64,000 nucleotides of DNA from a virus, in the IMG/VR virus record IMGVR_UViG_3300044730_000222, positions 1 to 64,000 of that record; one strand, written 5' to 3'. The translations under genes and the position numbers were made by a program. The notes under the pieces were generated by a model. The model did not search any database. It was given only the letters and a program-made list of their open reading frames with translations, and was not told the origin of the DNA. Positions within the stretch are counted from its first letter, which is position 1. Each line of letters opens with the position of its first letter. Below, one piece after another: positions 16,942-41,542 of this stretch.

Positions 16942-17007
16942 TGTGGATAACCTTGTTGATAACCCTGTGGATAAACCTAGCCTGTGGATAACTTTACCTG
17001 TGGATAA
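16942..17007 (-). promoter_or_regulatory. DnaA-box cluster (4 perfect TTATCCACA plus 1 mismatch)
   Basis: TGTGGATAA at 16942, 16966, 16983 and 16999; TGTTGATAA at 16954. Confidence 0.85.
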
Positions 17008-17176: not shown

Positions 17177-17359
17177 TTATCTAACGGGGGCAGTTCCTTG
17201 AACATAGCCGTCAATAGATAAAACATCACAAGTAATTTTTACTCTTTGATTTTTCTTTAATGATTTCTTATAAAGATTTATAAAGTGATAAACATTTTCC
17301 TTAGTAGGTAAGTTCATCTCAAAAGTATTTCCGTTCATACTAGTTATTGTTATTTTCAT
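17177..17359 (-). CDS. Early hypothetical protein
   Basis: ORF track; AGAAAGG RBS. Confidence 0.7.
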   Translation of the reverse strand: MKITITSMNGNTFEMNLPTKENVYHFINLYKKSLKKNQRVKITCDVLSIDGYVQGTAPVR

Positions 17360-17483
17360 TTAATACCTTTCTTTTTTCTGTATCGGTTGCTTTATCATAC
17401 CCCGCAACACTTCCGTGTTTAATAATCCAAGCCTTGCGGAGTTTTTGTTCTTGCGAATAATAGTAATAAATAACGCTATTCAT
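17340..17483 (-). CDS. Early micro-protein (47 aa)
   Basis: Manual translation MNSVIYYYYSQEQKLRKAW...; TAATG coupling to the upstream gene. Confidence 0.55.
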   Translation of the reverse strand: MNSVIYYYYSQEQKLRKAWIIKHGSVAGYDKATDTEKRKVLNENNNN

Positions 17484-17593
17484 TAGGCTACACACTCGCA
17501 AGGTTCAACACCATAGTTATCTTCATCGCCGTAAAAAATAACGCCGTGTCCATAACACTCATCACAATTTATTCTTTCTATTGCGTTTATCAT
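17483..17593 (-). CDS. Early micro-protein, CxxCxGxG...CxC zinc finger (36 aa)
   Basis: MINAIERINCDECYGHGVIFYGDEDNYGVEPCECVA; AGAAAGGA RBS and own promoter. Confidence 0.7.
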   Translation of the reverse strand: MINAIERINCDECYGHGVIFYGDEDNYGVEPCECVA

Positions 17594-17613
17594 TTTTAGT
17601 TATCCTTTCTTTC

Positions 17614-17772
17614 TTAAAGTGTAGCAGGGGCTACTGACATAGCCTCTACTGTAAATCCGTTAGCCACTAGGCTTTCCATAAGGTCATTTATCTGACGCTC
17701 ATTTATCATCAACATGTTTGATGTTGTAAGTATGGTATCCTCTTTGGATACTGTGTAATTTAGTGTTAGCAT
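17614..17772 (-). CDS. Early micro-protein (52 aa)
   Basis: MLTLNYTVSKEDTIL...; AGAAAGG RBS and own promoter. Confidence 0.65.
   Translation of the reverse strand: MLTLNYTVSKEDTILTTSNMLMINERQINDLMESLVANGFTVEAMSVAPATL
17618..17639 (-). promoter_or_regulatory. PafBC/RecA-NDp-type promoter
   Basis: TGTCAG-tagcccctgc-TACACT. Confidence 0.75.
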
Positions 17773-17808
17773 TTTTTGCTACCTAACCTTTCTTTTTGTT
17801 ATACTGTA

Positions 17809-17830
17809 ATTCTATCTGTTGCCACTGACA
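17809..17830 (-). promoter_or_regulatory. PafBC/RecA-NDp-type promoter
   Basis: TGTCAG-tggcaacaga-TAGAAT. Confidence 0.8.
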
Positions 17831-17858
17831 TTTTGAGGGGTCTGTGGGGTATCGCCCC

Positions 17859-17874
17859 TGTGATTTACATCACA
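17859..17874. promoter_or_regulatory. CRP box
   Basis: TGTGA-tttaca-TCACA. Confidence 0.75.
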
Positions 17875-17979
17875 CTAGGAAGCGTAATACTCTAGGTAGC
17901 AACCTGAGCAGACGACACGCCCAGAAGTCATAACCTGAGTGTATTTTCTATCTAGTTCACAGATTTCACATTTTTTCAT
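17875..17979 (-). CDS. Early micro-protein, CxxC...CxxC (34 aa)
   Basis: MKKCEICELDRKYTQVMTSGRVVCSGCYLEYYAS; AGAAAGGA RBS. Confidence 0.7.
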   Translation of the reverse strand: MKKCEICELDRKYTQVMTSGRVVCSGCYLEYYAS

Positions 17980-18014
17980 TTTATCTGTTCCTTTCTTTAG
18001 TTTCTATACTGCGT

Positions 18015-18036
18015 ATTCTAGTGGATACCACTGACA
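18015..18036 (-). promoter_or_regulatory. PafBC/RecA-NDp-type promoter
   Basis: TGTCAG-tggtatccac-TAGAAT. Confidence 0.8.
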
Positions 18037-18074
18037 TTTTGGGGGATATTTAGGGCGTGTCGCCCTTTTATTTT

Positions 18075-18090
18075 TGTGACTTACCTCACA
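18075..18090. promoter_or_regulatory. CRP box
   Basis: TGTGA-cttacc-TCACA. Confidence 0.75.
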
Positions 18091-18188
18091 CTTTGTAGGG
18101 AATCTACACAATTTGGACAAATCGCAATAATGTTGCGTTTTGATACATGGGTGGTCTTACCACATAACTTACAATTTTTCTTACTCAT
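18081..18188 (-). CDS. Early micro-protein, CxxC...CxxC (35 aa)
   Basis: MSKKNCKLCGKTTHVSKRNIIAICPNCVDSLQSVR; AGAAAGG RBS. Confidence 0.7.
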   Translation of the reverse strand: MSKKNCKLCGKTTHVSKRNIIAICPNCVDSLQSVR

Positions 18189-18222
18189 TTTAGAACCTTT
18201 CTGTTCATTTCTTATACTGCGT

Positions 18223-18244
18223 ATTCTACACGATAGCACTGACA
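18223..18244 (-). promoter_or_regulatory. PafBC/RecA-NDp-type promoter
   Basis: TGTCAG-tgctatcgtg-TAGAAT. Confidence 0.8.
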
Positions 18245-18353
18245 AAATCAAGGCGACACGCCGATAAAATAAAATAAATTTTTGTTATAGAACAAAACGG
18301 ACATTTCGGACAGGGACCTCCCCGACACGCCCGACCTCGGGGGTGGGGGATTT

Positions 18354-18369
18354 TGTGATAATCCTCACA
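18354..18369. promoter_or_regulatory. CRP box in the divergent promoter region
   Basis: TGTGA-taatcc-TCACA. Confidence 0.75.
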
Positions 18370-18407
18370 AAAAAAGATTTCCGACACGCCCGAAATACAG
18401 GGCAAAA

Positions 18408-18429
18408 TGTCAGTGCCCCGTGTTAGACT
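18408..18429 (+). promoter_or_regulatory. PafBC/RecA-NDp-type promoter
   Basis: TGTCAG-tgccccgtgt-TAGACT. Confidence 0.8.
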
Positions 18430-18449
18430 TACAGTATCAAAATTAAATA

Positions 18450-18511
18450 GTGCTAAATGAGCCTAGCAAATAAGTCTAGAAATAGAATGAGCCTAGCAAA
18501 TAAGTTAGCAC
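18450..18511 (+). repeat. Structured 5' leader with 20-bp direct repeat AATGAGCCTAGCAAATAAGT
   Basis: Copies at 18456 and 18486, separated by a TCTA-GAAA-TAGA hairpin and closed by GTGCTAA/TTAGCAC. Confidence 0.7.
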
Positions 18512-18536
18512 ACTAAATAGAAAGGTAGGTCAGAAA

Positions 18537-18731
18537 ATGACTACACTAAATAAAACTACGATAGAAATCGTTTTAGAAAATGGTTTCAATATTCAGGATA
18601 AAATCTGCGTATTTTGCTCAAATACCCTTGATCGCTGGGATACTTTTTGCTTCCCTTGCCAAGAGTATAAAGGCGTGATGAAAGTCATAGACGCCGTTGA
18701 TTACTACGGAGTAGATATTCTAGGTGTGTGA
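18537..18731 (+). CDS. Early small Zn-finger protein
   Basis: CVFC...CFPC; AGAAAGG RBS. Confidence 0.7.
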   Translation: MTTLNKTTIEIVLENGFNIQDKICVFCSNTLDRWDTFCFPCQEYKGVMKVIDAVDYYGVDILGV

Positions 18732-18742
18732 GGCAAATCACA
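18727..18742. promoter_or_regulatory. CRP box
   Basis: TGTGA-ggcaaa-TCACA upstream of a TTGACT -35. Confidence 0.75.
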
Positions 18743-18829
18743 CTCCCCAAGCGTGGGTCTAATTTGACTTTAACGCTAAAAAATGAAATAATAGAATTAT
18801 TAGAAAGTATCTTAGAAAGGATAACTTAA

Positions 18830-19027
18830 ATGAAAACTTATTCAATTCCAGACTTGCTCGTGGGTCAAGTTTATTATCCACGCTCTCTCGCTCGTAAATA
18901 CCAATACGGCGAAATTAACTACGCTGAAAAGCGTGATGATATTTATTTTGCTGATGGCTATGAAGCCTACGCAATTCGCTTCAATGGTCATCGTTGGGCT
19001 ACTGTCGCAGTAAAGGTGGCAGACTAA
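18830..19027 (+). CDS. Early hypothetical protein
   Basis: ORF track; AGAAAGGA RBS. Confidence 0.7.
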   Translation: MKTYSIPDLLVGQVYYPRSLARKYQYGEINYAEKRDDIYFADGYEAYAIRFNGHRWATVAVKVAD

Positions 19028-19146
19028 TGAAATTAGATGAATTCAAGGCTCTTATTGAGAGCCAGCGTAAAGCGCAACAATTGACAAACTTAGAGAAAAT
19101 CGCTAAAATAGTATCAACAACAAATACCAAGAAAGGTAAAAACTAA
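19027..19146 (+). CDS. Early micro-protein (39 aa)
   Basis: MKLDEFKALIESQRK...; TAATG coupling. Confidence 0.55.
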   Translation: MKLDEFKALIESQRKAQQLTNLEKIAKIVSTTNTKKGKN

Positions 19147-19148
19147 AA

Positions 19149-19403
19149 ATGACTAACTATAAAGACTTTCCATTCACAACTAACGGCGTGAATTTTATTT
19201 CAAGAGTTTATTCTGACTCTCCATTTCTATCCACTATTGAGCGCCTGCCTGAAGGTGCATTTGCCTCACTAAATATTCAAGCACTAACAGAATTAGTGGG
19301 TGACGCTTCACTTCTAACTCATGATGAATTACTAATAGCACTAACTAAAATAAATGATGGTGGAACTCATGCGTTTATTCTACTAGATGAGGGGTCTAAC
19401 TAA
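19149..19403 (+). CDS. Early hypothetical protein
   Basis: ORF track; operon context. Confidence 0.7.
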   Translation: MTNYKDFPFTTNGVNFISRVYSDSPFLSTIERLPEGAFASLNIQALTELVGDASLLTHDELLIALTKINDGGTHAFILLDEGSN

Positions 19404-19594
19404 TGATGACACGCAAAGACTATGTCAAGACCGCTGAAATTCTAAAAGGTTTCAGCGAGGAAATTCACCCACAAGTTTTTGAGGATTTGGTAGAGGAGTT
19501 TTCTCAATACTTTAAATCTGATAATGATAGATTTGATTTCGCAAGATTTGAAAAGGCTTGCGGAATTGACGAATTGGGGTTGATTCCTGTATGA
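19403..19594 (+). CDS. Early hypothetical protein (MTRKDY...DN.RFD..RF..AC family)
   Basis: Motif common in phage early regions. Confidence 0.7.
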   Translation: MMTRKDYVKTAEILKGFSEEIHPQVFEDLVEEFSQYFKSDNDRFDFARFEKACGIDELGLIPV

Positions 19595-19838
19595 CAAATT
19601 TAATTTTAACTGTCGCAATAATTTCATTTGGAACTTTATTCGGAATGAGTTTAATTACTATGAGAAAATTAGAAATTGAAAATAAAAAATTGCGAAAAGA
19701 AAATGCTGAAATGAAATGGAATCAAATTAAAGTTTGATTAAGTTGCGTTAAAAATTTTTCCTGAAATTTCTTTATGATATTTTGGGAAAAACCCCCGCAA
19801 CATCGGGAGGTCCCGCACTCGGGCGTGTCGTCCACAGG

Positions 19839-19847
19839 TTATCCACA
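19839..19847 (+). promoter_or_regulatory. Perfect DnaA box inside an early promoter cassette
   Basis: TTATCCACA, with a degenerate copy 11 bp upstream. Confidence 0.65.
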
Positions 19848-19909
19848 GGGGGGCAATTTACGAAGGGTGTGATTTTTCCCACATTTTTTGGGCGTGTCTA
19901 ATTGGAAAT

Positions 19910-19931
19910 TGTCAGTAGAAAATGATAGGCT
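19910..19931 (+). promoter_or_regulatory. PafBC/RecA-NDp-type promoter
   Basis: TGTCAG-tagaaaatga-TAGGCT. Confidence 0.8.
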
Positions 19932-19961
19932 GGAAGCCTAAAAATGAAAGAAGGTAATCTA

Positions 19962-20459
19962 ATGGGATTAGATATGTATCTCTCTGCTAAGAAAAATGTA
20001 GAGAAAGTAAATTGGAAGGCTCTTAGAGATAATGAGGAATTATCCTATGAAAGTCCTGAAGTGATTAATCCGCTATGGAAAAATATTGTAGATGTTGCTG
20101 ATATGGCAGATGTTGCTACAGATATTTATGGCGTTAATGTTGAAGTGACTTGTGCTTATTGGCGCAAGGCTAATCAGATTCATAAATGGTTTGTTGATAA
20201 TGTTCAAGGCGGTAATGATAATTGCGGTGAATACTATGTGTCGCAAAATAAATTAGAAGAATTGCTAGCGCTAGTTAATAGAGCATTGGCAGAGCGTAAT
20301 CCTACTTTGCTATCACCACAAGGGGGATTCTTCTTTGGCTCTACTGATATTGATGAGTGGTATTGGCGTGATTTAGAAAATACCAAAACTAAGTTAGAGC
20401 GCATATTTGCTCTGCCCCAATTGTCCGATTTGTCCTTTTACTACTCTTCTTCGTGGTAA
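19962..20459 (+). CDS. Conserved phage early protein (MGLDMYL...YWRKANQIH.WF...GFFFG...YYSSSW)
   Basis: Recognisable widespread hypothetical family. Confidence 0.75.
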   Translation: MGLDMYLSAKKNVEKVNWKALRDNEELSYESPEVINPLWKNIVDVADMADVATDIYGVNVEVTCAYWRKANQIHKWFVDNVQGGNDNCGEYYVSQNKLEELLALVNRALAERNPTLLSPQGGFFFGSTDIDEWYWRDLENTKTKLERIFALPQLSDLSFYYSSSW

Positions 20460-20480
20460 AAGGGCGAGGGGATTTGAAAA

Positions 20481-20502
20481 TGTCAGCCCCCTATGATAGG
20501 AT
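20481..20502 (+). promoter_or_regulatory. PafBC/RecA-NDp-type promoter
   Basis: TGTCAG-ccccctatga-TAGGAT. Confidence 0.8.
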
Positions 20503-20532
20503 TTCAGTATGAACAGAAAGAAGGAAAGAAAA

Positions 20533-20751
20533 ATGGATAAATTGGAATACGCACTAAGTATTATTGCTAATTGTGTTTTATGTAATGGAAAAGGTTATCA
20601 GTATTGGGCTAATGGAGATGACTTTGATACTGAATCTTGTGAGTGTAATGTCTATGATATTATTCTTGATGATGACGGAGATGTAATTTGGGATAATGGT
20701 TTATTATCTCAAAATGAATTATCAATTTACGCAACAAGCGAGGCTAACTAA
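20533..20751 (+). CDS. Early CxxCxGxG...CxC protein, paralogue of 17483..17593
   Basis: NCVLCNGKG...SCEC. Confidence 0.7.
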   Translation: MDKLEYALSIIANCVLCNGKGYQYWANGDDFDTESCECNVYDIILDDDGDVIWDNGLLSQNELSIYATSEAN

Positions 20752-20752
20752 A

Positions 20753-21034
20753 ATGGGAAGTAATTTTGCTAATGATTTGGCTCTTGCTGATAACTTGGAT
20801 ATTGAAACTCAGATAGGAATACACCTATCTAGTAATCATTACCCACCCGTTCCTAGTTTTATGGTCAAGACTTGTATTGAGGCTATTGACGCAGTAAATG
20901 ACGCAGGGCTTTGGTACTTGGAAATACCTCTACCTGAAGGGGTATTCTATAAGGGTAATTTGACTACCGCACCAGCACACGCTATTATTGAACAACACCA
21001 CCTAGATTCGTGGCTTATTGAAAGGGAATACTAA
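20753..21034 (+). CDS. Early hypothetical protein (HL..NHYPP...HHL)
   Basis: Start moved to ATG 20753. Confidence 0.7.
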   Translation: MGSNFANDLALADNLDIETQIGIHLSSNHYPPVPSFMVKTCIEAIDAVNDAGLWYLEIPLPEGVFYKGNLTTAPAHAIIEQHHLDSWLIEREY

Positions 21035-21035
21035 A

Positions 21036-21245
21036 ATGGAATATAACTATGTCTTGACTACTGCGTATGATGGAGAATTATTCTCTACCATGCGCCTTAG
21101 CGATTTTATGGAAGCACACGAGGCTTGGGCTAAATGCTCAGACCACGGAAATGCTAAAGAATACGCAACCTATAATCTTACAGACCCAACAGGTAAAATG
21201 TTCACTAAAAACTTTTATTCTGATGGCAGAGTATCGGTTAAATAA
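21036..21245 (+). CDS. Early hypothetical protein
   Basis: GAAAGGG RBS before ATG 21036. Confidence 0.65.
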   Translation: MEYNYVLTTAYDGELFSTMRLSDFMEAHEAWAKCSDHGNAKEYATYNLTDPTGKMFTKNFYSDGRVSVK

Positions 21246-21473: not shown

Positions 21474-21564
21474 AAATCCCCCGTTAAAAATCGGGACCTC
21501 CCCGCCCGATTTGTCCCTATTGTCCGATTTGATTTTTGTGTTATTTTATGATAAGATTTTATTT

Positions 21565-21696
21565 ATGTGGAAAAAAACTAGTAATGATTTACGAAGGCTA
21601 TTAGATTTACGAAGATCTAATGCTTCTCAGCCATTACGGAATAAGAAAAAATATTCCCGAAAAGTTAAGCACAAGAAAATTGACAATTCAGAATAA
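21565..21696 (+). CDS. Small basic protein (RRSNA...KKKYSRK.KH)
   Basis: Leaderless start after TGATAAGAT. Confidence 0.55.
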   Translation: MWKKTSNDLRRLLDLRRSNASQPLRNKKKYSRKVKHKKIDNSE

Positions 21697-21728
21697 AAAT
21701 GTTATTATGATATTAGAAAGGAAACCCC

Positions 21729-22448
21729 ATGAAACTAAAACGCTCTAATGATAGGAAGGTGGCTAATGCCGTATCAAAAAATGGAAAGACCGCAACAATT
21801 GCCAACACTTTTGGATTGCCTGCTGGAAAGGCTTACTCGTGCCCTGGTGCCACAAGTGTTTGTGAAAGTGTTTGCTACGCAGGAAAACTTGAAAAGATAT
21901 ACAAGGGAGTAAGAGATAATCTCCTTCATAACTGGAACCTGCTAAAAGACGCAGACCATGACACTATGGAAAACTTATTGCAAGATATGATTAATGACTT
22001 TAAGATTGATTGTGATAAGAAAGACGCTCCTAAACTATTCCGTATACACTGGGACGGCGACTTCTTTAATGATACTTATACTTTTGCATGGAAGCATGTC
22101 ATATTAAATAATCCTGATATTCAATTCTGGGTTTATACTCGTGTGGCTACCGCCGCAGATATGCTTAAAGATATAGATAATCTATCTCTCTACTTCTCAA
22201 CAGATAAAGAGAATAAAGATATTGCTATTAATCTTAATAAAGATAAGGGTATTCGATTAGCATACCTTGCAGATACCTTCGCAATTGGGCAGGCAGATAT
22301 GAAAGCAATGATAGGAAGACCTGGCGCTAAGTGCCCTGAAAACCTAAAAGCAATTCCGCTTATCTCTACTAATGGCTCTGCTTGCGTATCGTGTGGCTTG
22401 TGTATTTATGAGAAATCTGATATAGTATTTAGCGCAAAGAAAAAGTGA
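21729..22448 (+). CDS. GP88-family (radical-SAM-like Fe-S) phage protein
   Basis: CPGA...C...CYA, FRIHWDGDFF, FWVYTR and C..CGLC motifs. Confidence 0.75.
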   Translation: MKLKRSNDRKVANAVSKNGKTATIANTFGLPAGKAYSCPGATSVCESVCYAGKLEKIYKGVRDNLLHNWNLLKDADHDTMENLLQDMINDFKIDCDKKDAPKLFRIHWDGDFFNDTYTFAWKHVILNNPDIQFWVYTRVATAADMLKDIDNLSLYFSTDKENKDIAINLNKDKGIRLAYLADTFAIGQADMKAMIGRPGAKCPENLKAIPLISTNGSACVSCGLCIYEKSDIVFSAKKK

Positions 22449-22513
22449 GGGTAGAGTGGATAAAACAATATTATTCTTCATGGGCTTATGGATATTTATG
22501 TATCTATTTACCT

Positions 22514-22529
22514 TGTGATTAATATCACA
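22514..22529. promoter_or_regulatory. CRP box
   Basis: TGTGA-ttaata-TCACA upstream of TTGACA-N17-CATAAT. Confidence 0.75.
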
Positions 22530-22639
22530 AAGAATAAATCTCAAAATGTGAGATTTTTTAGATTTGGATTTGACAATAAATCTCAAAAATGTCATAATTA
22601 GACAGTAAGCAAAAACAACTAACGAAAGGAAATAAAGAA

Positions 22640-22804
22640 ATGGCAGTAAATACAGCACTATACAAGGTAGGCGATACTTATACTTCTCAGAAGTCTAAGA
22701 TTACAGGCTCTATCAAAGAAATCGTGCCAAACCCAAATGGTTCGGTTCGTGTCAAACTTGATGTTGAAGGCAAGACACGCTGGACAACTTGGAAAGCAAA
22801 GTAA
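22640..22804 (+). CDS. Early small protein, paralogue of 23404..23571
   Basis: YKVGDTYTSQKSKITG vs YRVGDLFTTSKTGITG; GAAAGGA RBS. Confidence 0.7.
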   Translation: MAVNTALYKVGDTYTSQKSKITGSIKEIVPNPNGSVRVKLDVEGKTRWTTWKAK

Positions 22805-22820
22805 TTCCTAATACAGGAAA

Positions 22821-22850
22821 AGACCTGAGCAAGTCTGCTAAAACTGCTCA
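22821..22850 (+). ncRNA. Small H-type pseudoknot motif, copy 1
   Basis: AGAC-CTGAGCAA-GTCT-GCTAAAAC-TGCTCA. Confidence 0.7.
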
Positions 22851-22907
22851 ACTTGATTTTCTATCATAGAAATGCTAAGATAGAACCCCATACAGAAAGG
22901 AAAACAA

Positions 22908-23330
22908 ATGGCTAGAAATGGCAAAAGTATAAATGTCAAGATTGCTACAACTAAAGTAATCAAGGCACTTGAAACTAAATTGGCTCAACTCCAAAAGGAT
23001 AAGGCTAATCAGAAAGTAAATGAGGAAAAGTTGCTGAAGGCACAAGAGAAGTATAATAAGGAAGTTGCTAAGTTAGCACTTGCTCAAATCTCTAAGGCAA
23101 CAGACTTATCTGCTAATGTTCGCTGGAACGGCGAAGTAAATGTTGATTTCAATTTACCAAAAGGTTCTATTGAATTACCTGAAATGCCTGAGAAAGATTT
23201 TGAGTCTTTCAATGATTGGCAATACAAGGAAATGGTAGATGAAATTGAAAACGCTATCCGTATCCTAAAGATGACAGATGAGGAAGTAGTTTCTACTTCT
23301 ACTTACAACACTATCGCAAGATACTTGTAA
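22908..23330 (+). CDS. Early coiled-coil protein
   Basis: ORF track; AGAAAGGA RBS. Confidence 0.75.
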   Translation: MARNGKSINVKIATTKVIKALETKLAQLQKDKANQKVNEEKLLKAQEKYNKEVAKLALAQISKATDLSANVRWNGEVNVDFNLPKGSIELPEMPEKDFESFNDWQYKEMVDEIENAIRILKMTDEEVVSTSTYNTIARYL

Positions 23331-23403
23331 TTCTATGGGGGAAGGGTATTTGACTTCCCCCCTAAAAAATGTTAAACTTGATTATCACAGAAAGGATAAA
23401 CAA

Positions 23404-23571
23404 ATGACCCTTGGAGGCTATACTTACAGAGTAGGCGATTTATTCACTACTTCCAAAACAGGTATTACAGGTCGCATTGAAAAGTTTGTGCCACAAACTA
23501 GAAATGTCACTAAGGTAATGCTACGCTTAGCAAATAACCAAACAAGATTTGCTATGGTAAAAACTTACTAA
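23404..23571 (+). CDS. Early small protein
   Basis: AGAAAGGA RBS before ATG 23404; TTGACT-N17-TAAACT promoter. Confidence 0.7.
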   Translation: MTLGGYTYRVGDLFTTSKTGITGRIEKFVPQTRNVTKVMLRLANNQTRFAMVKTY

Positions 23572-23576
23572 TAGAA

Positions 23577-23702
23577 TTGTGGCGGGTTTGAACTGTGTAA
23601 TCATCTAGATTCCCGCCACAACTTTTCTCTCCTGCGTTCATGGCAGATCTATCTGCGAAAGTCCCCTGGAGAGATTGTCCTGAGTATGACAATAAACTGC
23701 TC
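23577..23702 (+). ncRNA. Structured intergenic RNA ending in pseudoknot copy 2
   Basis: TTGTGGCGGG/CCCGCCACAA and TCTCTCC/GGAGAGA stems, then ATTGTC-CTGAGTAT-GACAAT-AAAC-TGCTC. Confidence 0.65.
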
Positions 23703-23734
23703 TTTAAAAATACCGCAAAAAATCGGGAGGCCCC

Positions 23735-23750
23735 TGTGATTATTCTCACA
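23735..23750. promoter_or_regulatory. CRP box
   Basis: TGTGA-ttattc-TCACA. Confidence 0.75.
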
Positions 23751-23845
23751 TGGCTGCGACACGCCGATATTTATTTACGAAGGAATTTGTATTTTTCCCA
23801 TATTTCTGCTAAACTTAATAGATAACCAACAGAAAGGAACGCCCC

Positions 23846-24127
23846 ATGATAGCAACCGCTATTAAATTACAAGAAGCATCAAGAGATGCAGTTCATGATG
23901 ACATGATAATGGAAATTGTCAAACACATTGTCAGTATTAGAGATGTAGTAGATGAAGAAAGTTTTATCAAAGAGATGTATAACTATTCCGCTATGCTCTC
24001 TGCTATGACAACAACTCTAGTTACTCACGCATTATTGACAGAGGAACAAATAAATGATATGCTGGAAGCCATTAAAGAAATGGATACAGTAGGAGAGGAA
24101 CTCTTAAATGAATACAGAAACAACTAA
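23846..24127 (+). CDS. Early hypothetical protein
   Basis: ORF track; AGAAAGGA RBS. Confidence 0.7.
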   Translation: MIATAIKLQEASRDAVHDDMIMEIVKHIVSIRDVVDEESFIKEMYNYSAMLSAMTTTLVTHALLTEEQINDMLEAIKEMDTVGEELLNEYRNN

Positions 24128-24572
24128 TGAAATAGTAGTGCCAGCACACTACAACCCTAATCAAATCGTAACCTATAAGATTATTGATTCTGAAGCACAC
24201 CAAGCAGACTATGCGAATTGGTATCCCACAGTAAAGGTTAGCGACCTTGAATATGAATTACACCAACACCGCAGAGAAAGACGGGAACTTAATAGATATA
24301 CTCAGCATGTAGGTATGTTAGAAAGTCGCCTACCTGATTACCTTGATATGGATTCAGAGGAAATCGTTGCTGATATTTGTAGTATCTTTGGATTTAATCC
24401 TACTAAGGAAATTCAATTTGAGGCTACCGCCACAATTACAGGAACAATATCAGTTCCGTTAGATGAAGTTGCTAACTTTGATGTTAGTGATATTGACTTA
24501 AATGTTTATGCTGAACTAAGTTCATATGACGGAGAAGCAGATGTTGAGATAGATAATATCTATAAAGTGTGA
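24108..24572 (+). CDS. Early acidic hypothetical protein
   Basis: ORF track. Confidence 0.7.
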   Translation: MNTETTNEIVVPAHYNPNQIVTYKIIDSEAHQADYANWYPTVKVSDLEYELHQHRRERRELNRYTQHVGMLESRLPDYLDMDSEEIVADICSIFGFNPTKEIQFEATATITGTISVPLDEVANFDVSDIDLNVYAELSSYDGEADVEIDNIYKV

Positions 24573-24587
24573 TAGTGGGGCTATCCA

Positions 24588-24615
24588 AGATCCTGGGCAT
24601 GATTTAAAACTGCCC
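24588..24615 (+). ncRNA. Pseudoknot motif, copy 3 (compensatory GGGCA/TGCCC)
   Basis: AGATC-CTGGGCAT-GATTT-AAAAC-TGCCC. Confidence 0.7.
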
Positions 24616-24753
24616 CTCGCAAAATTGCGGACCTCCCGCAAATTTTTTATTTTGTCAAATTTACGGCGTGTCGGGACAAATGATTAACAGGACTTGCTTT
24701 TATTAATCTTATATGTTAAACTTGAGATTCATAACTAATGAAAGGAAATAAAA

Positions 24754-25770
24754 ATGGCTCATGAATTAGAAACGCAAAATGGCGTTGCTTCTTTTGCTTC
24801 TTTTAGAGAACCTGCTTGGCACGGCTTAGGCACAGTTTTCACAGAAGAAAAAACAACAAGCGAAATGCTTGCTGCTGCTAATCTAAATAATTGGAATGTT
24901 AGATTGGTTGATGTTGAGATTCCAAACACTCTTACCTCAGACAAGAATTATTCTTATGTCGTAAGGACTAACCCTACTGAGAATAATCAGACAGATATTC
25001 TTGGTGTTGTAGGTGAGCGTTATCATGTTTTACAGAATGAAGATTTATTTTCATTCGGTGATAATATCCTAGATGGCGGTGGGCGTTGGGAAACTGCTGG
25101 CTCAATTCGTGGTGGGCGTGTAGTATTCGGCTCTCTTGCTCTTGAGCGTGAAACAGTATTAGACCCTAATGGTGTTGCGGATAAAGTAAAGACTTATTTA
25201 CTTATCAACACAAGCCACGATGGCTCAATTGCTATTCAAGCGTCAATAACACCCGTTCGTGTTGTATGCGCTAACACTCTCAATCTTGCTCTTGGTTCTA
25301 AGCGTGGCAAAAATGCTATCAAGCAATCATTCAAGATTCGTCATACACAGACCGCTAATGGCAAGGTTGCTATTGCTCGTGAGGCTCTTGGTCTTGCTAA
25401 TAAGTATATGGACGCTTTTGATATTATGGCTAAGGCTATGATTGAAAAAGAAATTACAGCGCAACAGTTCAATGATATTGTTCTCGCTGCTTATCCTAAG
25501 CCTGAGAAAGACGCTAAGGGCGCAATCAAAAAGTGGGAAAATAAAATTGATGTTATCAATGATATTTACACAGGGCAATTTAATGGAATGATTGCTAACA
25601 CCGCTTGGGGCGCTTTCAATGCTCTAACTGAACGCCTTGATTGGCACAGAAATGCTCGTGGTGGTTCTAACGAATCCCTACTCGCTGCTGCTAGTGGTTT
25701 TGACGCAACAATTACCGCAGAAAAAAATCGTCTGCTAAGTGTTGTAAAAAATACTTTAGAATTAGTTTAA
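24754..25770 (+). CDS. DUF932 (phage/plasmid-like, TIGR03299-type) protein
   Basis: REPAWHGLG, WETAGS, NTSHDGS, TPVRVVCANTL and TAWGAFNALTE motifs. Confidence 0.85.
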   Translation: MAHELETQNGVASFASFREPAWHGLGTVFTEEKTTSEMLAAANLNNWNVRLVDVEIPNTLTSDKNYSYVVRTNPTENNQTDILGVVGERYHVLQNEDLFSFGDNILDGGGRWETAGSIRGGRVVFGSLALERETVLDPNGVADKVKTYLLINTSHDGSIAIQASITPVRVVCANTLNLALGSKRGKNAIKQSFKIRHTQTANGKVAIAREALGLANKYMDAFDIMAKAMIEKEITAQQFNDIVLAAYPKPEKDAKGAIKKWENKIDVINDIYTGQFNGMIANTAWGAFNALTERLDWHRNARGGSNESLLAAASGFDATITAEKNRLLSVVKNTLELV

Positions 25771-25779
25771 TCTAATTCA

Positions 25780-25807
25780 ACTCCTGAGTAAGAGTATAAA
25801 CTGCTCA
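25780..25807 (+). ncRNA. Pseudoknot motif, copy 4
   Basis: ACTC-CTGAGTAA-GAGT-ATAAAC-TGCTCA followed by a T-tract. Confidence 0.7.
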
Positions 25808-25889
25808 ATTTTTTTTTGTAAAAAAATCCCGTGATCATAAATTAAAATTTGCAATTAAAAAAATGCGGACCTCCTTATAGGGAGGCCCC

Positions 25890-25905
25890 TGTGACCTACA
25901 TCACA
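25890..25905. promoter_or_regulatory. CRP box
   Basis: TGTGA-cctaca-TCACA. Confidence 0.75.
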
Positions 25906-25988
25906 AAATGAAAAATAGTATAACATTTCTTAAAATTTTCTATTACGAAGGATTTGATTTTTCCCCAGTTTTTTGCTAAAATTTATCT

Positions 25989-26207
25989 ATGACCCTAAAT
26001 GTAGAAATATATGAAATGGAATATTCTGTATCCCCTGGTGGAGTTGACTGCTGGGAAATGACTATTGGGAATAAATGCTATTCAGGTTTTAAAACTGCTG
26101 GACATGCATTGGACCACTTGCTAATTATGCACCCTTCTGATACCCTTGACTTATCAGTAACTTCACTTAATGTTTATTATAAAGAACTAGAAAGGATCCA
26201 ATGTTAG
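25989..26207 (+). CDS. Hypothetical protein
   Basis: ORF track; leaderless after TGCTAAAAT. Confidence 0.65.
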   Translation: MTLNVEIYEMEYSVSPGGVDCWEMTIGNKCYSGFKTAGHALDHLLIMHPSDTLDLSVTSLNVYYKELERIQC

Positions 26208-26362
26208 GATATACAGAAGAACAAATAAACAAAATGATGACTACTCTTAACTATACTATTCATCATCATATGACTGGTGTATTTGCAGATGAGGATAGAG
26301 CAGTGCTAAAAGATCTAGAGGACTTCTTAGAGGGATTAATTGCAGAAGGGCATGTGAGGTAA
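26201..26362 (+). CDS. Small hypothetical protein (MLGYTEEQ...EGLIAEGHV)
   Basis: Manual translation; AGAAAGGA RBS. Confidence 0.65.
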   Translation: MLGYTEEQINKMMTTLNYTIHHHMTGVFADEDRAVLKDLEDFLEGLIAEGHVR

Positions 26363-26368
26363 ATCACA
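26353..26368. promoter_or_regulatory. CRP box
   Basis: TGTGA-ggtaaa-TCACA upstream of TTGACA. Confidence 0.75.
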
Positions 26369-26531
26369 TTACGAAGACTTGACAAAGTCCCACATTTTTG
26401 AGAAAATTGGATTAAGAACAGAAAGGAAAAAATCGTGGAACACCAACACTACTGGGACACACCCAACACGACACAACTAGACCTAGTCGCACAATGCGCC
26501 TGCGGTGAAGAACTATTGAGGGAGACGGATA

Positions 26532-27254
26532 ATGCCTAACTGGTGTTATAACACTCTTTCTATAGAAGGTAAGCCTGAACTCATTGCGGATGTTAAGCGT
26601 ATGCTTAATAGACCATTTAAGAAATCTCATGATTCATGGAACATGGCTACAGGACAAATGGAAGTATCAGAAACCGCATACTCTAATCCTGTTTTTGCTT
26701 TTCATAATATATATAATCATATTCAGGACGGTGTCTCTGATGAGGAGTATCTAAAGCAACCTGACCATAGCCTACCATTAGAAGAATCTCTTATGTTCAA
26801 AGGCAACCATTGGTATGACTGGAATGTAAGAAACTGGGGAACCAAATGGGATGTAGCAATTAGACATGGTGAGGAGTATCCTGAGACTGAGTTAATGGAA
26901 GAAGATGAGACTTCTCTTTCATACCGTTTTAATACCGCTTGGTCTCCACCAGTGCCTGCTATTATCAAACTATCTGAACAGTATCCTGACTTAGATTTTA
27001 ATCTATACTATCAAGAAGAAACTGGTTGGGGTGGAGAAACAGAATTCAAAAATGGTTTTATTACTAATAGTGAAGAGTATGAGACTAAGTGTATGGATTG
27101 TGATTCATTAGATACCCTTGAATATTGTGACAATGATTGTGGTCAGATTTGTTCAGAGTGTAACTATATGGGCGAAGCAGACCTTGACCAAGTTGCGGAA
27201 TGTGAAGACCACAAGATATACTTAGACAACGTTCCTGAATACAGAAAGGTATGA
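26532..27254 (+). CDS. DUF1281/YubB ferredoxin-like fold protein
   Basis: MPNWCYN, WYDWNVRNWGTKW, F.TAWSPP motifs; Cys-rich tail. Confidence 0.8.
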   Translation: MPNWCYNTLSIEGKPELIADVKRMLNRPFKKSHDSWNMATGQMEVSETAYSNPVFAFHNIYNHIQDGVSDEEYLKQPDHSLPLEESLMFKGNHWYDWNVRNWGTKWDVAIRHGEEYPETELMEEDETSLSYRFNTAWSPPVPAIIKLSEQYPDLDFNLYYQEETGWGGETEFKNGFITNSEEYETKCMDCDSLDTLEYCDNDCGQICSECNYMGEADLDQVAECEDHKIYLDNVPEYRKV

Positions 27255-27255
27255 A

Positions 27256-27474
27256 ATGGAATCAGAATACATCAATAGAAAAGTTAAACTAATAGAATAT
27301 ACCAAACTACATGTTATTAGTTTAGAACAGGATTTGGAACAAATATCTATTGAAATGGAAGCATTAGATATGAACTCTAAAGATTGGGATGAGTTAGATT
27401 TTGAATATAATCATATGGGAGGACAGATTCTTTCTGCCCGTCATCTTTTACAAGTTATGGAGGAAATGCTCTAA
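27256..27474 (+). CDS. Small acidic helical protein
   Basis: ORF track; resembles the next gene (GQI/GQL). Confidence 0.65.
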   Translation: MESEYINRKVKLIEYTKLHVISLEQDLEQISIEMEALDMNSKDWDELDFEYNHMGGQILSARHLLQVMEEML

Positions 27475-27728
27475 TGGAAGAATATCTGCAGAAACAGGTA
27501 GACATGGGTAGTTCTGGTTTAGATATCATGCATGGGCACCTCAAAGTTCTAATGCTAGAGGCTGAACAAGAACTGGCGGAGGCACAAGCAATCGAAGATG
27601 AATCAGAAGAGGCTATGGATTCTATGGAGCGTAAGTATTGGGAAGGCCAATTAGACGCACTTGCTAATCTATATAGTTTGACATATGACTTGTCATTTGC
27701 CATTGCAGCCAAGGAGGCAGCAAAATGA
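27474..27728 (+). CDS. Small acidic helical protein
   Basis: ORF track; TAATG coupling. Confidence 0.65.
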   Translation: MEEYLQKQVDMGSSGLDIMHGHLKVLMLEAEQELAEAQAIEDESEEAMDSMERKYWEGQLDALANLYSLTYDLSFAIAAKEAAK

Positions 27729-28021
27729 AACTATATCAAATAGAACTAATTCATGAGGCTACAGGTGAGTACATGAATTTTGAATATACATCAGACGCAA
27801 AAAGCGATGACGCTGTCTGTTCTGAGATTCTGTCAGATCTATCTGTAGTTATTCTAAGTAAAGAGGATTTGACAGAGGAAGAGGAATTTGATACTATTAA
27901 AGCAAACCAACTACAGAAAGGTAGTGAAATGCAACACGAACATTATTGGGATACACCGTCAGACAAGTCACTCGTAGCAGAGTGTGCCTGTGGAGAACAA
28001 CTAGAAAGGGTTCAAGATTAA
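27725..28021 (+). CDS. Hypothetical protein, possibly with an internal start at 27929
   Basis: Internal TTGACA promoter and AGAAAGG RBS precede MQHEHYW. Confidence 0.55.
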   Translation: MKLYQIELIHEATGEYMNFEYTSDAKSDDAVCSEILSDLSVVILSKEDLTEEEEFDTIKANQLQKGSEMQHEHYWDTPSDKSLVAECACGEQLERVQD

Positions 28022-28383
28022 TGGGTGCCCGCTGTAACTTTGTATTTAAACAATCAGATAACTATGCTGTGGCTTTGTACAGTCACTGGGATGAAGACAA
28101 CATGTATGAACTACTTGCTGCAGCCCTAGACCATGCACGTCCACGTCTACAAATGGGAGACATTCCATATGCGACTCGTATGGCCATTAGTTATATTATT
28201 AAAGATTCTATTTTGGATGAGACTGGTTACGGTATTACTGCCATGGACCCGTCAGACCAAGGATTCTTAGACCATCCAATCACAATCGACCTAACAGATA
28301 TGACTGTGGGCAGTGGTGAGGATTGGCACACTATTGAAGATTTTATTAAATATCATTCAATACAACTGGTTAAACAATCTTAA
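28021..28383 (+). CDS. Conserved phage hypothetical protein (MGAR...LYSHW...ETGYGI)
   Basis: Start moved to ATG 28021. Confidence 0.7.
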   Translation: MGARCNFVFKQSDNYAVALYSHWDEDNMYELLAAALDHARPRLQMGDIPYATRMAISYIIKDSILDETGYGITAMDPSDQGFLDHPITIDLTDMTVGSGEDWHTIEDFIKYHSIQLVKQS

Positions 28384-28505
28384 CTGAGGGCCTAGCGTGG
28401 TGAACTAGGCTGAATGCGTGGGGTGGGTCCCTCACGTGATATAAGGGTAGAGCGCAGGTGTGGGGCTTGCGCTCTCCCAACATCTTTGATACAATGAGGA
28501 GGAAT

Positions 28506-28742
28506 ATGTCAAGATACTCAATCCGTAAGCCTGCGGTAACTAAAGAACAACAAGTAGCCAAGAAAGTCGCAAGGGCATTAACAGAAGATTTTAATAGCGA
28601 CTTAGAAGGAGTTGGCTACTCTATTAGTGCTGACCATGCGCCTATTATTTTTCACAGACTAGAAACAATGTATTTGGCTTCTAAAGATGAACATGATAGA
28701 ATTATGGGTAGAGAAGTAGAAACGGAAGGTTTTGGCAGATGA
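28506..28742 (+). CDS. Hypothetical protein
   Basis: GAGGAGG RBS before ATG 28506. Confidence 0.65.
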   Translation: MSRYSIRKPAVTKEQQVAKKVARALTEDFNSDLEGVGYSISADHAPIIFHRLETMYLASKDEHDRIMGREVETEGFGR

Positions 28743-29023
28743 TAGAGTTTGCGAACAAATGCGGTATCCTAGGAGAAGTCTGGATTAATTATAAGGATGA
28801 TAAGCAATTCGGAGACTTTATAGAATACAATGATTTAGGACTGCCCCTGGCATACATGATAGCCGAGGGTCTAATAAAAGAAATAACTCCTCTAGGAGAA
28901 CAATACATAGATGAAACCTTTACTTTGTTTATTGCTGGTTTAGAAATAAATGAAAATGAAGTAGATGAAGAAATGAATTTAGCAGACTTATTAGACTATG
29001 TAGAAAAGAAAAAGAAGAAATAG
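28739..29023 (+). CDS. Hypothetical protein (FIEYNDLGLPLAY)
   Basis: ORF track. Confidence 0.7.
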   Translation: MIEFANKCGILGEVWINYKDDKQFGDFIEYNDLGLPLAYMIAEGLIKEITPLGEQYIDETFTLFIAGLEINENEVDEEMNLADLLDYVEKKKKK

Positions 29024-29029
29024 ATTATT

Positions 29030-29700
29030 TGATATCGGGACCTCCGTATAGGGAGGACCCCATATTCAAACCATAAAACCTTTCAAACCATATTTTTTAA
29101 AAGACATTACGAACAAATCTAAAAAAATCCCAGAAGTTTATCAAATAAATTTTTATTTGTCAAATCAGATCTATATCCTATAGGTAGTATATGTAGTATG
29201 ATATGTTTTTTTGTATACCCCGCCGCAGGCGTGTCTGTTAATTTAGATAGACATTACGAACCGCCTCAAAGTCCCCCCCTCTGAACGGCCCGTAAAAGCG
29301 GCGGTATAAAAAACATTACGAACACCCTATATCTTTCCCCATATATACAAACCATATATACATTACGAAGGACATATATTTTTTCCTGGATTTTTAGAAT
29401 ATTTCCCATATGTTTTATAACTTTTTGTTATACTTTTCCACAGTTTTGGACAGGTTTTATAACATTTCTATATCAAATATTGAGACAATTTTGTCCATAT
29501 TGTGGATATAAATAGGTTTGACAATATGAATTTTATATGGTATAGGGTTTGGGAACTGGGTTGGTTTGAACTGCCAGTATTACGAACGCACTCTAGAAAG
29601 TGCTCCATTCCCCACTTTCCTCCATTTTCCTCCACCTATTTCCTATGATATTTATATCAGTAAGATTTTTCTGTGGATAAACCTGTGGATAACTATACAA
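29030..29700. promoter_or_regulatory. Non-coding control region with five (C/T)ATTACGAA repeats and DnaA boxes
   Basis: Repeats at 29105, 29252, 29314, 29361 and 29578; TGTGGATAA at 29672 and 29684; TTTTCCACA at 29434. Confidence 0.75.
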
Positions 29701-29728
29701 ATTTGCCTATATCTGCTATACTTTTTAC

Positions 29729-29944
29729 ATGCCTAGTCAACATACAAAATGGTTTAAAGATGATCGCCTTGTAAAGGCTCTAGATGATATGCGCCAACGC
29801 AATATGGAATTTATGTCCAAGTGTTATTATTGTGGCGCAGAAGCGGTAGCCATAAAATCTATAGGTGAAAGACTATATCCAGCCTGTGATATTCATCCAG
29901 GAGTAGATGAAGTTATTCAATCAGAATCTTTCTTTAAAGACTAA
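29729..29944 (+). CDS. Small Zn-binding protein
   Basis: CYYC...C..H; leaderless. Confidence 0.6.
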   Translation: MPSQHTKWFKDDRLVKALDDMRQRNMEFMSKCYYCGAEAVAIKSIGERLYPACDIHPGVDEVIQSESFFKD

Positions 29945-30156
29945 TTTTTAGGCGGTATACCCAAAGGCATATCCGTAACATTATCAAATGCCTCTTCACA
30001 TAATGGGCAATAGGAATTAGGCAATCTTCCACTTCTTAAAGTTGATCCACCCAATAATATCAAACCTGCTTCACTTAAATCCAAGGTCTTCTGGCTTACT
30101 ACTCCATAGACTATAGGTATTAGTTTTGTCTTACATCTAGTACATATACTACTCAT
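29941..30156 (-). CDS. Small Zn-ribbon protein (C..C...IPIVYG...LGG...C..C)
   Basis: ORF track; near-leaderless TGCTATACT promoter. Confidence 0.65.
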   Translation of the reverse strand: MSSICTRCKTKLIPIVYGVVSQKTLDLSEAGLILLGGSTLRSGRLPNSYCPLCEEAFDNVTDMPLGIPPKN

Positions 30157-30214
30157 ATAGGGTTAGTATAGCAGTTCTTGGTATACCGTGGTATTTTTTG
30201 ATATACCCCTTGAT

Positions 30215-30243
30215 TTGCATACTTGCCCATAGTTGTGTATAAT
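30215..30243 (+). promoter_or_regulatory. Sigma-A-type promoter of the sRNA
   Basis: TTGCAT-N17-TATAAT. Confidence 0.75.
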
Positions 30244-30250
30244 TGGATAT

Positions 30251-30358
30251 AGAAGGGCCTAGAAACCCTTCTCTCCCCTCCCTTTCTGGGGGAGCAAGTC
30301 GTCCCTCCCTTTCTGGGGATGCGCTCCTGAGCATGAGCGATAAACTGCTCATCTTTTT
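30251..30358 (+). ncRNA. Putative anti-Shine-Dalgarno sRNA: three hairpins (two CCCUUUCU loops), 3' pseudoknot copy 5, U-tract
   Basis: Promoter directly upstream; stems read from the sequence; no credible ORF. Confidence 0.7.
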
Positions 30359-30692
30359 ATTGTATAATGCCTTAATGCATTTACATAGATATTTAACAAA
30401 AGAACTAGGTAATAAGATCATATATTATTGCCAAAGATGTGGATGGGAAAAAGTAGTTGACATACCGCCCCCTACATGGGATAATTGAGGTATGAAACTA
30501 ACTAATGAATATATCAAGACAGAACTTATTAAGATCAATGAGTTATTAATATCAGGCTCTCTTCATGATGTAGATGAGGCTAGTCATATATCAGCAAGGT
30601 TAATAGGGGAACTTAGTTCTTCTTGACATACCGCCGACTTTCTGATACACTGAAAGCACGTGGATTATATATCGTAGAAAAGTGAGAATAAC

Positions 30693-31070
30693 ATGAATCC
30701 AAAAATGACAATCGTAGGGCGCTTAGGAAAAGATCCTGAAGCAATCGGCACATCAGGTGCTCGTTTTAGCGTAGTAACACAAGACCGTGTAAAAAATGAC
30801 AAGGGCGAATGGGAAGACCGTGACACTACTTGGCATAGCATTAAGGCTTGGAAAACGCTAGGACAACAGGCTCTATCTACTTTGAAAAAGGGTCAAGAAG
30901 TAATTGTTTATGGAACATTCAGTGCAGATGAGTGGGTTGATAAAGAAGGCCAGAAGCGTGTCACAAATGAGGTACACGCCGAAAGCATTGCCGTTACGGT
31001 ATATACTTTATCCAAGATGAACACAACTCCTGTCAATGATCCTTGGGTCAAGGAAACAGTAAACGCATAA
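30693..31070 (+). CDS. ssb: Single-stranded DNA-binding protein
   Basis: IVGRLGKDPE, LKKGQEVIVYG and W.DKEGQKR motifs. Confidence 0.9.
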   Translation: MNPKMTIVGRLGKDPEAIGTSGARFSVVTQDRVKNDKGEWEDRDTTWHSIKAWKTLGQQALSTLKKGQEVIVYGTFSADEWVDKEGQKRVTNEVHAESIAVTVYTLSKMNTTPVNDPWVKETVNA

Positions 31071-31529: not shown

Positions 31530-31811
31530 ATGACTACAAACCGAATAGTTGCTCTTAGCACAACTTCCCCAATATTGCTAAGTCCAGCAGGCACACACTC
31601 TGGAGTTGACATTACTGTTCAAAACATTAATGCTGAAGGATATGTTTATATTGGCGGATCAAACTTAACTAATGGAAACTATGGTTTTAGAATTGATCCA
31701 AGCCATGCAATTTCAGTTGAATTAAATGGAAGAGACTCTTTGTATGCCCTTGGTTCTACCAGCGGACTATCTGCTTCTATTCTTATGACTAACTTAGAAC
31801 AAGGTATGTGA
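31530..31811 (+). CDS. Small beta-rich, possibly virion, protein
   Basis: VQN.....VYIGG......YGFR motif; leaderless. Confidence 0.55.
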   Translation: MTTNRIVALSTTSPILLSPAGTHSGVDITVQNINAEGYVYIGGSNLTNGNYGFRIDPSHAISVELNGRDSLYALGSTSGLSASILMTNLEQGM

Positions 31812-32383: not shown

Positions 32384-32395
32384 TACAATTGAGGT

Positions 32396-33136: not shown

Positions 33137-33290
33137 GAGAATCTTTTGAATTCCCTGAAACTTTAAACGAAGTAGTTTTAGTTGTACAAACATTATCTCC
33201 AACAAAATGGTTACTTGTAGATAGAGAAACTGGACAGGTGTATCAGGGTAGTCCTTCTGGTAACTGGGATAAGTTAGAGCCTAAACAAAG

Positions 33291-34016: not shown

Positions 34017-34150
34017 TGAGATTTTGTTTGGTATCATAGAGTAATGAAAAAAGAAAAACTTCCAGATTTAAGAGATCCAAGAACATTTCTTAAAGAAATT
34101 ATTATTGGTGCATTTATTCTTGGCTTTATTATAGGAGCGTTAATCGCACA

Positions 34151-34366: not shown

Positions 34367-34439
34367 TAAATATGATATTTTTATAACTTTACAAAATAAA
34401 ATTTTTACTGTATAATAGAAATAAGGACTAGGAGAAAAA

Positions 34440-34894: not shown

Positions 34895-34920
34895 TGATAT
34901 AATAAGTTTATGGGGGAAAT

Positions 34921-35613: not shown

Positions 35614-35729
35614 GGAGATAATTATGAGTTCTAGATCTGTAGTGTGTAGTAAATGTAGTAAAGAAATAGACGTGCGCTGGGGAATATTTGCTCACGATAC
35701 TTTAAATAGGCACCTAAAGGAGCATAAGA

Positions 35730-41530: not shown

Positions 41531-41542
41531 TGACTAACTAAA

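Follow-up and report, generated by a model that had tools for sequence, protein, structure and literature searches.

In Mycobacterium, Streptomyces and other Actinobacteria, the activator PafBC reads promoters with a 22-nucleotide (nt) bipartite layout, TGTC(A/G)G, exactly 10 nt and TAnnnT, the in vivo motif being tGTCgg(N10)tA(N3)T (Müller et al. 2021, PMC8635444). The 3' half of this motif corresponds to the SigA -10 box and the 5' half to positions -23 to -28, with no -35 element; the GTC triplet, which is almost invariant in actinobacteria, is contacted by Arg46 and Arg50 of PafB, and PafBC is positioned between the DNA and sigma region 4, a mode of activation termed 'sigma adaptation' (PMC8635444). 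The motif is non-palindromic (PMC6789036), and the activator of PafBC is single-stranded DNA (ssDNA) (PMC11804915). Here we describe a cluster of seven promoters with the same layout, TGTCAG-N10-TAnnnT, in an uncultured lake virus, IMG/VR record IMGVR_UViG_3300044730_000222, of which positions 1 to 64,000 were analysed as one stretch (hereafter, the window); P26 is our own name for this promoter class.

Three other groups of described systems are relevant for comparison. The middle promoters of phage T4, which combine a MotA box at -30 with a sigma70 -10 box, resemble P26 in that the -35 element is replaced by one nearer to the -10, and the T4 MotA/AsiA proteins and a PafBC-type reader are alike in being seated on sigma region 4; however, the T4 factors are phage-encoded and sigma is remodelled, whereas the present phage yielded no candidate factor and its element matches the site of a host activator. 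The large lytic phages SPO1 and T5 have host-takeover modules in which numerous tiny genes are each served by a strong early promoter. The locus described here shares with them a block of very small genes without assigned function, many self-promoted, in a large tailed phage, but the promoters of SPO1 and T5 are canonical housekeeping-sigma promoters, whereas the present locus also contains a second class, of the activator type. Finally, in DriD, CapW, BrxR and other WYL-domain regulators an ssDNA signal is likewise tied to phage infection and DNA damage; unlike the presumed reader of P26, these proteins act on palindromic sites and regulate defence or damage genes of the host, and none has been reported to drive phage genes. 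A literature search found no published account of PafBC-type promoters in any phage.

A promoter class with a fixed spacer in lake phages

Both strands of the window were searched with the pattern TGTCAGNNNNNNNNNNTANNNT (TGTCAG-N10-TAnnnT), and 100 shuffles served as the null. Eight matches were obtained, against a shuffle mean of 0.93 (standard deviation 0.96, maximum 5), and none of the 100 shuffles attained this number. Seven of these sites form the cluster, four on the minus strand (17618, 17809, 18015 and 18223) and three on the plus strand (18408, 19910 and 20481), and in this phage the class is restricted to 17.6-20.5 kb. The eighth match (3397-3418, minus strand) lies within an open reading frame (ORF) for a tail-fibre-like protein of 764 amino acids (aa) at 2148-4442, and is probably due to chance. 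The remaining 38 kb of the 101,845-nt record contain no TGTCAG-N10-TAnnnT, and variants with a 9- or 11-nt spacer gave no match in the whole phage genome. All seven clustered sites are intergenic and co-oriented with the gene downstream, with a divergence point at about 18.3 kb; the distance from the end of the -10 box to the start codon is 24-36 nt (107 nt for the 18408 promoter), and the start codons are preceded by a GAAAGG/AAGGA ribosome-binding site. The first-pass annotation, which was made from the sequence alone, had described seven such sites with invariant spacing, each facing a ribosome-binding site and a gene, and had put the chance expectation at far fewer than one in 3 kb; all of this is borne out, the shuffles giving 0.93 matches per 64 kb.

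Apart from the two invariant boxes, the seven sites differ in their accessory features. The octamer TGTCAGTG is present in four of the seven, as is the TGn of an extended -10. At the -35 position, with a 17-nt spacing, three sites score 4-5 of 6 against TTGACA (TTGATT, TGGAAA and TTGAAA), and the other four have 3 or fewer matches of 6.

The same class was found throughout a set of 54 non-redundant related loci (565 kb, 35-41% guanine plus cytosine (GC)), where TGTC[AG][GC]-N10-TAnnnT occurs 435 times, compared to 22 in shuffles, and spacers of 7-9 and 11-13 nt yield 11-31 matches, that is, the background level. To avoid presupposing the upstream element, 1,898 TGnTAnnnT contexts were also counted without bias. 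Only two upstream signals stand out among them, TTGA(C) at the -35 distance (about 300) and TGTCAG (about 222), the latter 16 nt before the -10, an offset at which GTC is the top trinucleotide. An independent view comes from the conserved 165-aa protein encoded downstream of the 19910 promoter, which has 151 relatives in IMG/VR. An orthologous promoter is located directly upstream of the gene in 24 of 35 distinct related loci, and these 24 keep (A/T)(A/T)TGTC(A/G)G and TA(T/G)(A/G)(A/C)T, separated by ten free positions; the sequence of the spacer and of the flanks differs completely among the orthologues and the length of the spacer is constant. In the family profile, which is non-palindromic, position 5 is A in 84% and G in 16% of the sites and position 6 is G in 94%, under a search pattern that permitted only A/G and G/C, respectively, at these positions. 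An A/T tract immediately precedes TGTC, and about 70% of the sites have TGn before the -10.

The seven sites represent a distinct and real promoter class under strong constraint, and P26 is the promoter type that characterises a large group of lake phages with 36-41% GC. The phage analysed here, with seven promoters in 2.9 kb, is a rather promoter-poor member of its group, in which up to 21 are found in 12 kb. An exact 14-base scan of IMG/VR gave at least three sites in 33 of 80 loci among the matches listed, nearly all with 36-41% GC. Two further IMG/VR contigs with 51% and 48% GC (L196 and L187) carry 3-4 TGTC[AG][GC]-N10-TAnnnT sites in 11-14 kb, so the promoter type may extend beyond the low-GC group. 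Because the spacing is held to the single nucleotide, the pattern points to one protein assembly that would contact both boxes, rather than to a roadblock operator.

Likeness to PafBC promoters and the host question

All seven phage sites have TGTCAG, which includes the GTC, at -28 to -23 and the fixed 10-nt gap to a SigA-type -10 box, as in the PafBC class. The ultraviolet (UV)-inducible RecA-NDp promoter of Streptomyces coelicolor SCO6735, TGTCAGTGGTGGCCCGTACGGT, as given by the authors' primer abutting the start codon (PMC5087735), reads TGTCAGTG-N8-TACGGT and has the octamer in common with four of the seven phage sites. Invariance of the GTC, lack of a palindrome and a SigA-type -10 are shared as well, whereas the lack of a -35 element applies to four of the seven sites, the other three having 4-5 of 6 matches to TTGACA; otherwise, at the level of sequence, the phage sites have the features of the PafBC promoter class. 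They differ from the known members of this class in being located in a virus and not in a DNA-repair regulon, in their very high density and in their context, which is AT-rich DNA with an A/T tract upstream, often with TGn and sometimes paired with phased CRP-type boxes; furthermore, for the phage sites, the activator and the inducibility are predicted ones.

We consider it somewhat probable (roughly 55%) that the PafBC of the host, together with the RNA polymerase-SigA holoenzyme, reads the phage promoters by sigma adaptation. Under this scenario, the housekeeping RNA polymerase of the host would on its own use P26 promoters poorly, and the ssDNA-bound PafBC heterodimer would place itself between the DNA and sigma region 4, read the GTC triplet and turn on about 18 small genes of the phage to either side of 18.3 kb. 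The ssDNA could originate from damage to the host DNA, for example by UV in surface water, or from the DNA of the phage itself as it enters, replicates or is processed by nucleases. The P26 genes are probably early genes. They are not necessarily the first to be expressed, as the first-pass annotation had assumed, because 21.5-30.6 kb is filled with canonical TTGACA-N17-TGnTAnnnT promoters, which need no activator and would fire without PafBC. A layout that combines an unconditional SigA set with an ssDNA-conditional set is plausible.

The record has 37% GC, and its ends (1-282 and 101564-101845) agree at 277 of 282 positions, so that, despite its classification as 'linear, 94% complete', it is a closed, complete genome of about 101,563 bp; a class II ribonucleotide reductase gene is split by the contig end. 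Judging from a WhiB gene (45150-45431, E 5e-14), a GP88-family gene (E 7e-55) and a TerL (58507-60285, minus strand) that is 53% identical to its counterparts in the Streptomyces phages Karimac and Coruscant (130-kb, Stanwilliamsviridae), the phage is an actinophage; the TerL had no Pfam match at E 0.01. The first 11.6 kb of Karimac also hold a run of small genes about 100 nt apart, without the TGTCAG motif. About a dozen studies of lakes or other fresh waters, with at least 14 metagenome runs between them, contain DNA of the phage, and the host is most readily sought among low-GC lake actinobacteria, for example Nanopelagicales. For comparison, cultured Planktophila phages have 44.8% GC and their host 46.5% (PMC10202952), and whiB predicts the host to the phylum level only (PMC12143481). 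Mycobacterium smegmatis was rejected as the host of a phage that has 37% GC and comes from lake water. Contigs of relatives of the phage, the only matches to its WhiB in a scan of species genomes, lie in metagenome-assembled genomes labelled Methylococcus, Saccharibacteria, Acidimicrobiaceae, Polynucleobacter and Chitinophaga (L011-L016) and were set aside as mis-binned, likely contamination, and not as host evidence; apart from these, the phage WhiB has no close homologue in the genome sample, and a search of the ESM Atlas with it returned viral WhiB clusters only. Rhodopsin, taken as a marker of planktonic lineages, was screened for in two samples of the phylum with 401 genomes each (the rhodopsin tally includes the unpublished genome G322), and none of the genomes that carry it is both small and low in GC; the five small ones whose recA loci were examined have 52-78% GC at recA. 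A rhodopsin protein search placed one genome, G190, in the acIV/Ilumatobacteraceae group and not in acI.

Within the phylum, WYL proteins are widespread, being present in 344 of 401 sampled genomes, with up to 11 matches per genome (this tally includes 13 unpublished genomes: G124, G340, G178, G152, G005, G272, G052, G092, G230, G347, G022, G086 and G243, none of which is discussed individually here). TGTC..-N10-TAnnnT was identified upstream of recA in four of 14 WYL-bearing genomes (G314, G341, G024 and G363), none of them shown to be a host, and in none of six WYL-less genomes, several of which have LexA-type boxes before recA instead. In these four genomes the box lies 31-34 nt upstream (about 60-100 nt in model coordinates), and three of them (G341, G024 and G363) have 37-42% GC. 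G363 encodes two tandem, PafB/PafC-like WYL proteins, the first of which matches the M. smegmatis PafB of 7P5X, the PafBC-polymerase structure, with E 2.8e-13.

Several observations weigh against a role of PafBC. Weak -35-like hexamers (two or three of the seven promoters) and TGn (four of the seven) imply that some P26 promoters may fire without an activator, and the ssDNA requirement of PafBC is awkward for the very first genes of a phage. The first 50 kb of Karimac contain six sites, compared to 7.7 expected, that is, no enrichment. In the PafB of G363, Arg50 is kept and Arg46 is aligned to Gln, and TGTCRS-N10-TANNNT shows no genome-wide excess in G341, G024 and G244. Moreover, the low-GC genomes with the recA motif have no match to the phage WhiB, and G024 encodes an anaerobic ribonucleotide reductase; these genomes are therefore stand-ins and not hosts. 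The two 401-genome samples contain no genome recognisable as Nanopelagicales or another likely lake host. Of the first-pass claim that the sites match the promoter of the host PafBC, the geometry stands, being equal to that of the published motif (PMC8635444); pafBC and the motif were shown in other actinobacteria only, and the attribution to the host PafBC is a putative one at the phylum level.

Other candidate readers of the element

A copy of PafBC encoded by the phage itself, which the first-pass annotation had raised as an alternative, was sought and not found. Six-frame searches of the whole genome gave no match at E up to 1 for WYL (PF13280), HTH_11 (PF08279) or sigma70 region 2 (PF04542), with positive controls matching in each case, and Pfam and PHROG scans of 76 ORFs revealed no transcription-factor family; the informative matches in the early block are limited to SSB, GP88, DUF932 and a DUF1281-type domain. 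Thus, a recognisable phage PafBC is not present.

It is unlikely that TGTCAG is bridged to sigma region 4 by an adaptor that is made by the phage or delivered with the virion and is unrelated to PafBC in sequence, in which case the likeness to PafBC promoters would be only convergence or mimicry of geometry, comparable to T4 MotA/AsiA at the -30 MotA box. Phage proteins that read an element lying between the -35 and -10 positions have been described (PMC8635444), the class is restricted to a single phage group, with no enrichment over the first 50 kb of the cultured relative Karimac, and the nearby canonical SigA promoters could express such a factor first. The early block encodes dozens of small proteins without a family, several of them zinc ribbons, and for this reason a novel adaptor stays a rival. 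The scans described above, which found no DNA-binding family in the phage, speak against it, as does the extent of the match, which covers TGTCAGTG, the invariant GTC, a spacer of exactly 10 nt and the SigA -10, none of which a new adaptor would need to copy.

An equally improbable reader is another host factor, either a different WYL or winged helix-turn-helix activator or the reader of an unrecognised promoter class of low-GC lake actinobacteria. The host is assigned to its phylum only, WYL regulators are numerous in actinobacteria (see above), and mycobacteria have a second WYL activator, SiwR (PMC10693628). However, the bipartite 22-nt geometry with a SigA -10 is known for PafBC only, and the recA promoters of several WYL-bearing actinobacteria show this geometry.

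The least probable of the alternatives is that P26 sites are ordinary extended -10 SigA promoters in which TGTCAG is a repressor operator or a structural (A-tract or bending) element. The TGn found in four of the seven sites here and about 70% in the family, the weak T.GAAA at the -35 position, the hybrids of TTGA(C/T) plus TGTCAG in some relatives and the asymmetric, TGTCAAG-containing operators of mycobacteriophage L5 fit this explanation, but a repressor site needs no single-nucleotide spacing to the -10 over 435 promoters, and the three of seven sites that lack both TGn and a -35 still keep TGTCAGTG-N8-TAGAAT.

Genes and elements around the promoters

The four leftward promoters serve a block of six tiny genes (17177-18188, minus strand; 34-60 aa), three of whose products contain CxxC zinc-ribbon or DnaJ-type CxxCxGxG motifs; no family match was found for the proteins of this block. 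Promoter 1 (17618-17639), TGTCAG-TAGCCCCTGC-TACACT with a TGn extended -10, faces the small ORFs 17593-17483, 17483-17340 and 17359-17177. Promoters 2 (17809-17830), 3 (18015-18036) and 4 (18223-18244) all read TGTCAGTG-N8-TAGAAT, and their targets are, respectively, a 52-aa ORF (17772-17614), a 34-aa zinc-ribbon ORF (17979-17875) and a 35-aa zinc-ribbon ORF (18188-18081); promoter 4 has a weak TTGATT at the -35 position. The rightward block (18537-21245, plus strand) comprises about ten small genes under promoters 5-7, with only weak PHROG matches of unassigned function. Promoter 5 (18408-18429), TGTCAGTG-N8-TAGACT with TGn, precedes six small ORFs in 18537-19737; promoter 6 (19910-19931), TGTCAG-TAGAAAATGA-TAGGCT with TGn, precedes the conserved 165-aa protein (19962-20459; phrog_7971, no assigned function), which has no match among cultured phages; and promoter 7 (20481-20502), TGTCAG-CCCCCTATGA-TAGGAT with TGn, precedes ORFs 20533-20751, 20753-21034 and 21036-21245. 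Because TTGAAA occupies its -35 position, promoter 7 may be of a hybrid type. Tiny cysteine-rich proteins (CxxC...CxxC) are encoded at 17483-17593, 17875-17979 and 18081-18188 on the minus strand and at 20533-20751 on the plus strand; two of them have the DnaJ-like CxxCxGxG, the majority have their own promoter, and only weak zinc-ribbon matches, and otherwise no family, were found for them.

Canonical TTGACA-N17-(TGn)TAnnnT promoters are located on the rightward genes at 21529-30651 (plus strand), for example at 21680, 22570, 24035, 26379, 27869, 30457 and 30623, and further ones are scattered elsewhere. In relatives, canonical and P26 promoters are intermingled, a small number of them having both boxes. 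The small-gene block ends with an SSB gene (30693-31070, plus strand; PF00436, E 4e-21), and it is a matter of speculation that the phage SSB could damp the ssDNA signal to PafBC. A large cluster of genes for glycosyltransferases and methyltransferases occupies 31808-43548 (GT2, GT25, GT1-like, FkbM and GlcNAc transferase), after which comes a gene for a pyrimidine-dimer DNA glycosylase (43548-44036).

Contigs from four metatranscriptome runs align to parts of the 17-23 kb region, with identities that are mostly 85-95%, and therefore come from relatives; being assembled, they cannot reveal the starts or strands of transcripts. A single 267-nt contig from one run starts at 19940, 9 nt past the -10 of promoter 6, which is an anecdote and not evidence. 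TGTCGG variants are seen in relatives.

Two further elements accompany the promoters. A perfect CRP-type palindrome, TGTGA-N6-TCACA, at 17859-17874 precedes the TGTC of promoter 2 by 44 nt, and sister boxes at 18075-18090 and 18354-18369 each lie 54 nt before promoters 3 and 5. Altogether the window contains eight perfect palindromes of this type (starting at 17859, 18075, 18354, 18727, 22514, 23735, 25890 and 26353), compared to 0.12 expected. In the phage family (L022-L082), a CRP-type box is found 150 nt or less upstream in 142 of 510 P26 promoters, and the preferred distances from the start of the box to TGTC, 44, 54 and 63-65 nt (here 44, 54 and 54), place these boxes in helical phase. 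The second element is a small hairpin, AGGGCGTGTCGCCCT (18052-18066), which carries the 8-mer GACACGCC. This 8-mer (GACACGCC/GGCGTGTC) is present in 11 copies, compared to 0.8 expected, and seven of the 11 genome copies fall within 17.9-19.9 kb (17914, 18061, 18255, 18324, 18383, 19829 and 19898), for the most part at 10-30 nt before P26 promoters; 652 kb of related loci contain 234 copies, often in a small hairpin (GGGCGTGTCGCCC) located 10-30 nt upstream of a P26 promoter. Perfect DnaA-box-like 9-mers were observed as well, four of TGTGGATAA within 66 nt at 16942-17007 and two at 29672 and 29684 (29672-29692), and a DnaA-box-like TTATCCACA is located at 19839, between two promoters.

A broader reading, which we regard as possible and clearly more tentative than the role of PafBC at this locus, is that a globally abundant group of lake actinophages uses the ssDNA sensor of the host as a transcription switch. 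Incoming, replicating or nuclease-cut phage DNA, or damage to the host by sunlight, would activate PafBC, which would redirect the SigA polymerase to dozens of phage promoters, alongside helically phased CRP-type sites. For a direct test of the idea, PafBC/RNA polymerase assays from M. smegmatis and pafBC mutants are already available. Should this reading be true, it would provide the first known case of a virus exploiting sigma adaptation and a WYL-domain alarm protein to express its own genes, and the hundreds of promoter variants would represent a natural set for studies of sigma adaptation. The prevailing view of WYL proteins, PafBC among them, is that they alert the host to DNA damage and phage attack; here a host defence signal would become a cue for the phage, and the infection programme of very abundant lake phages would be tied to UV or DNA damage and to host signals of the cyclic AMP type.

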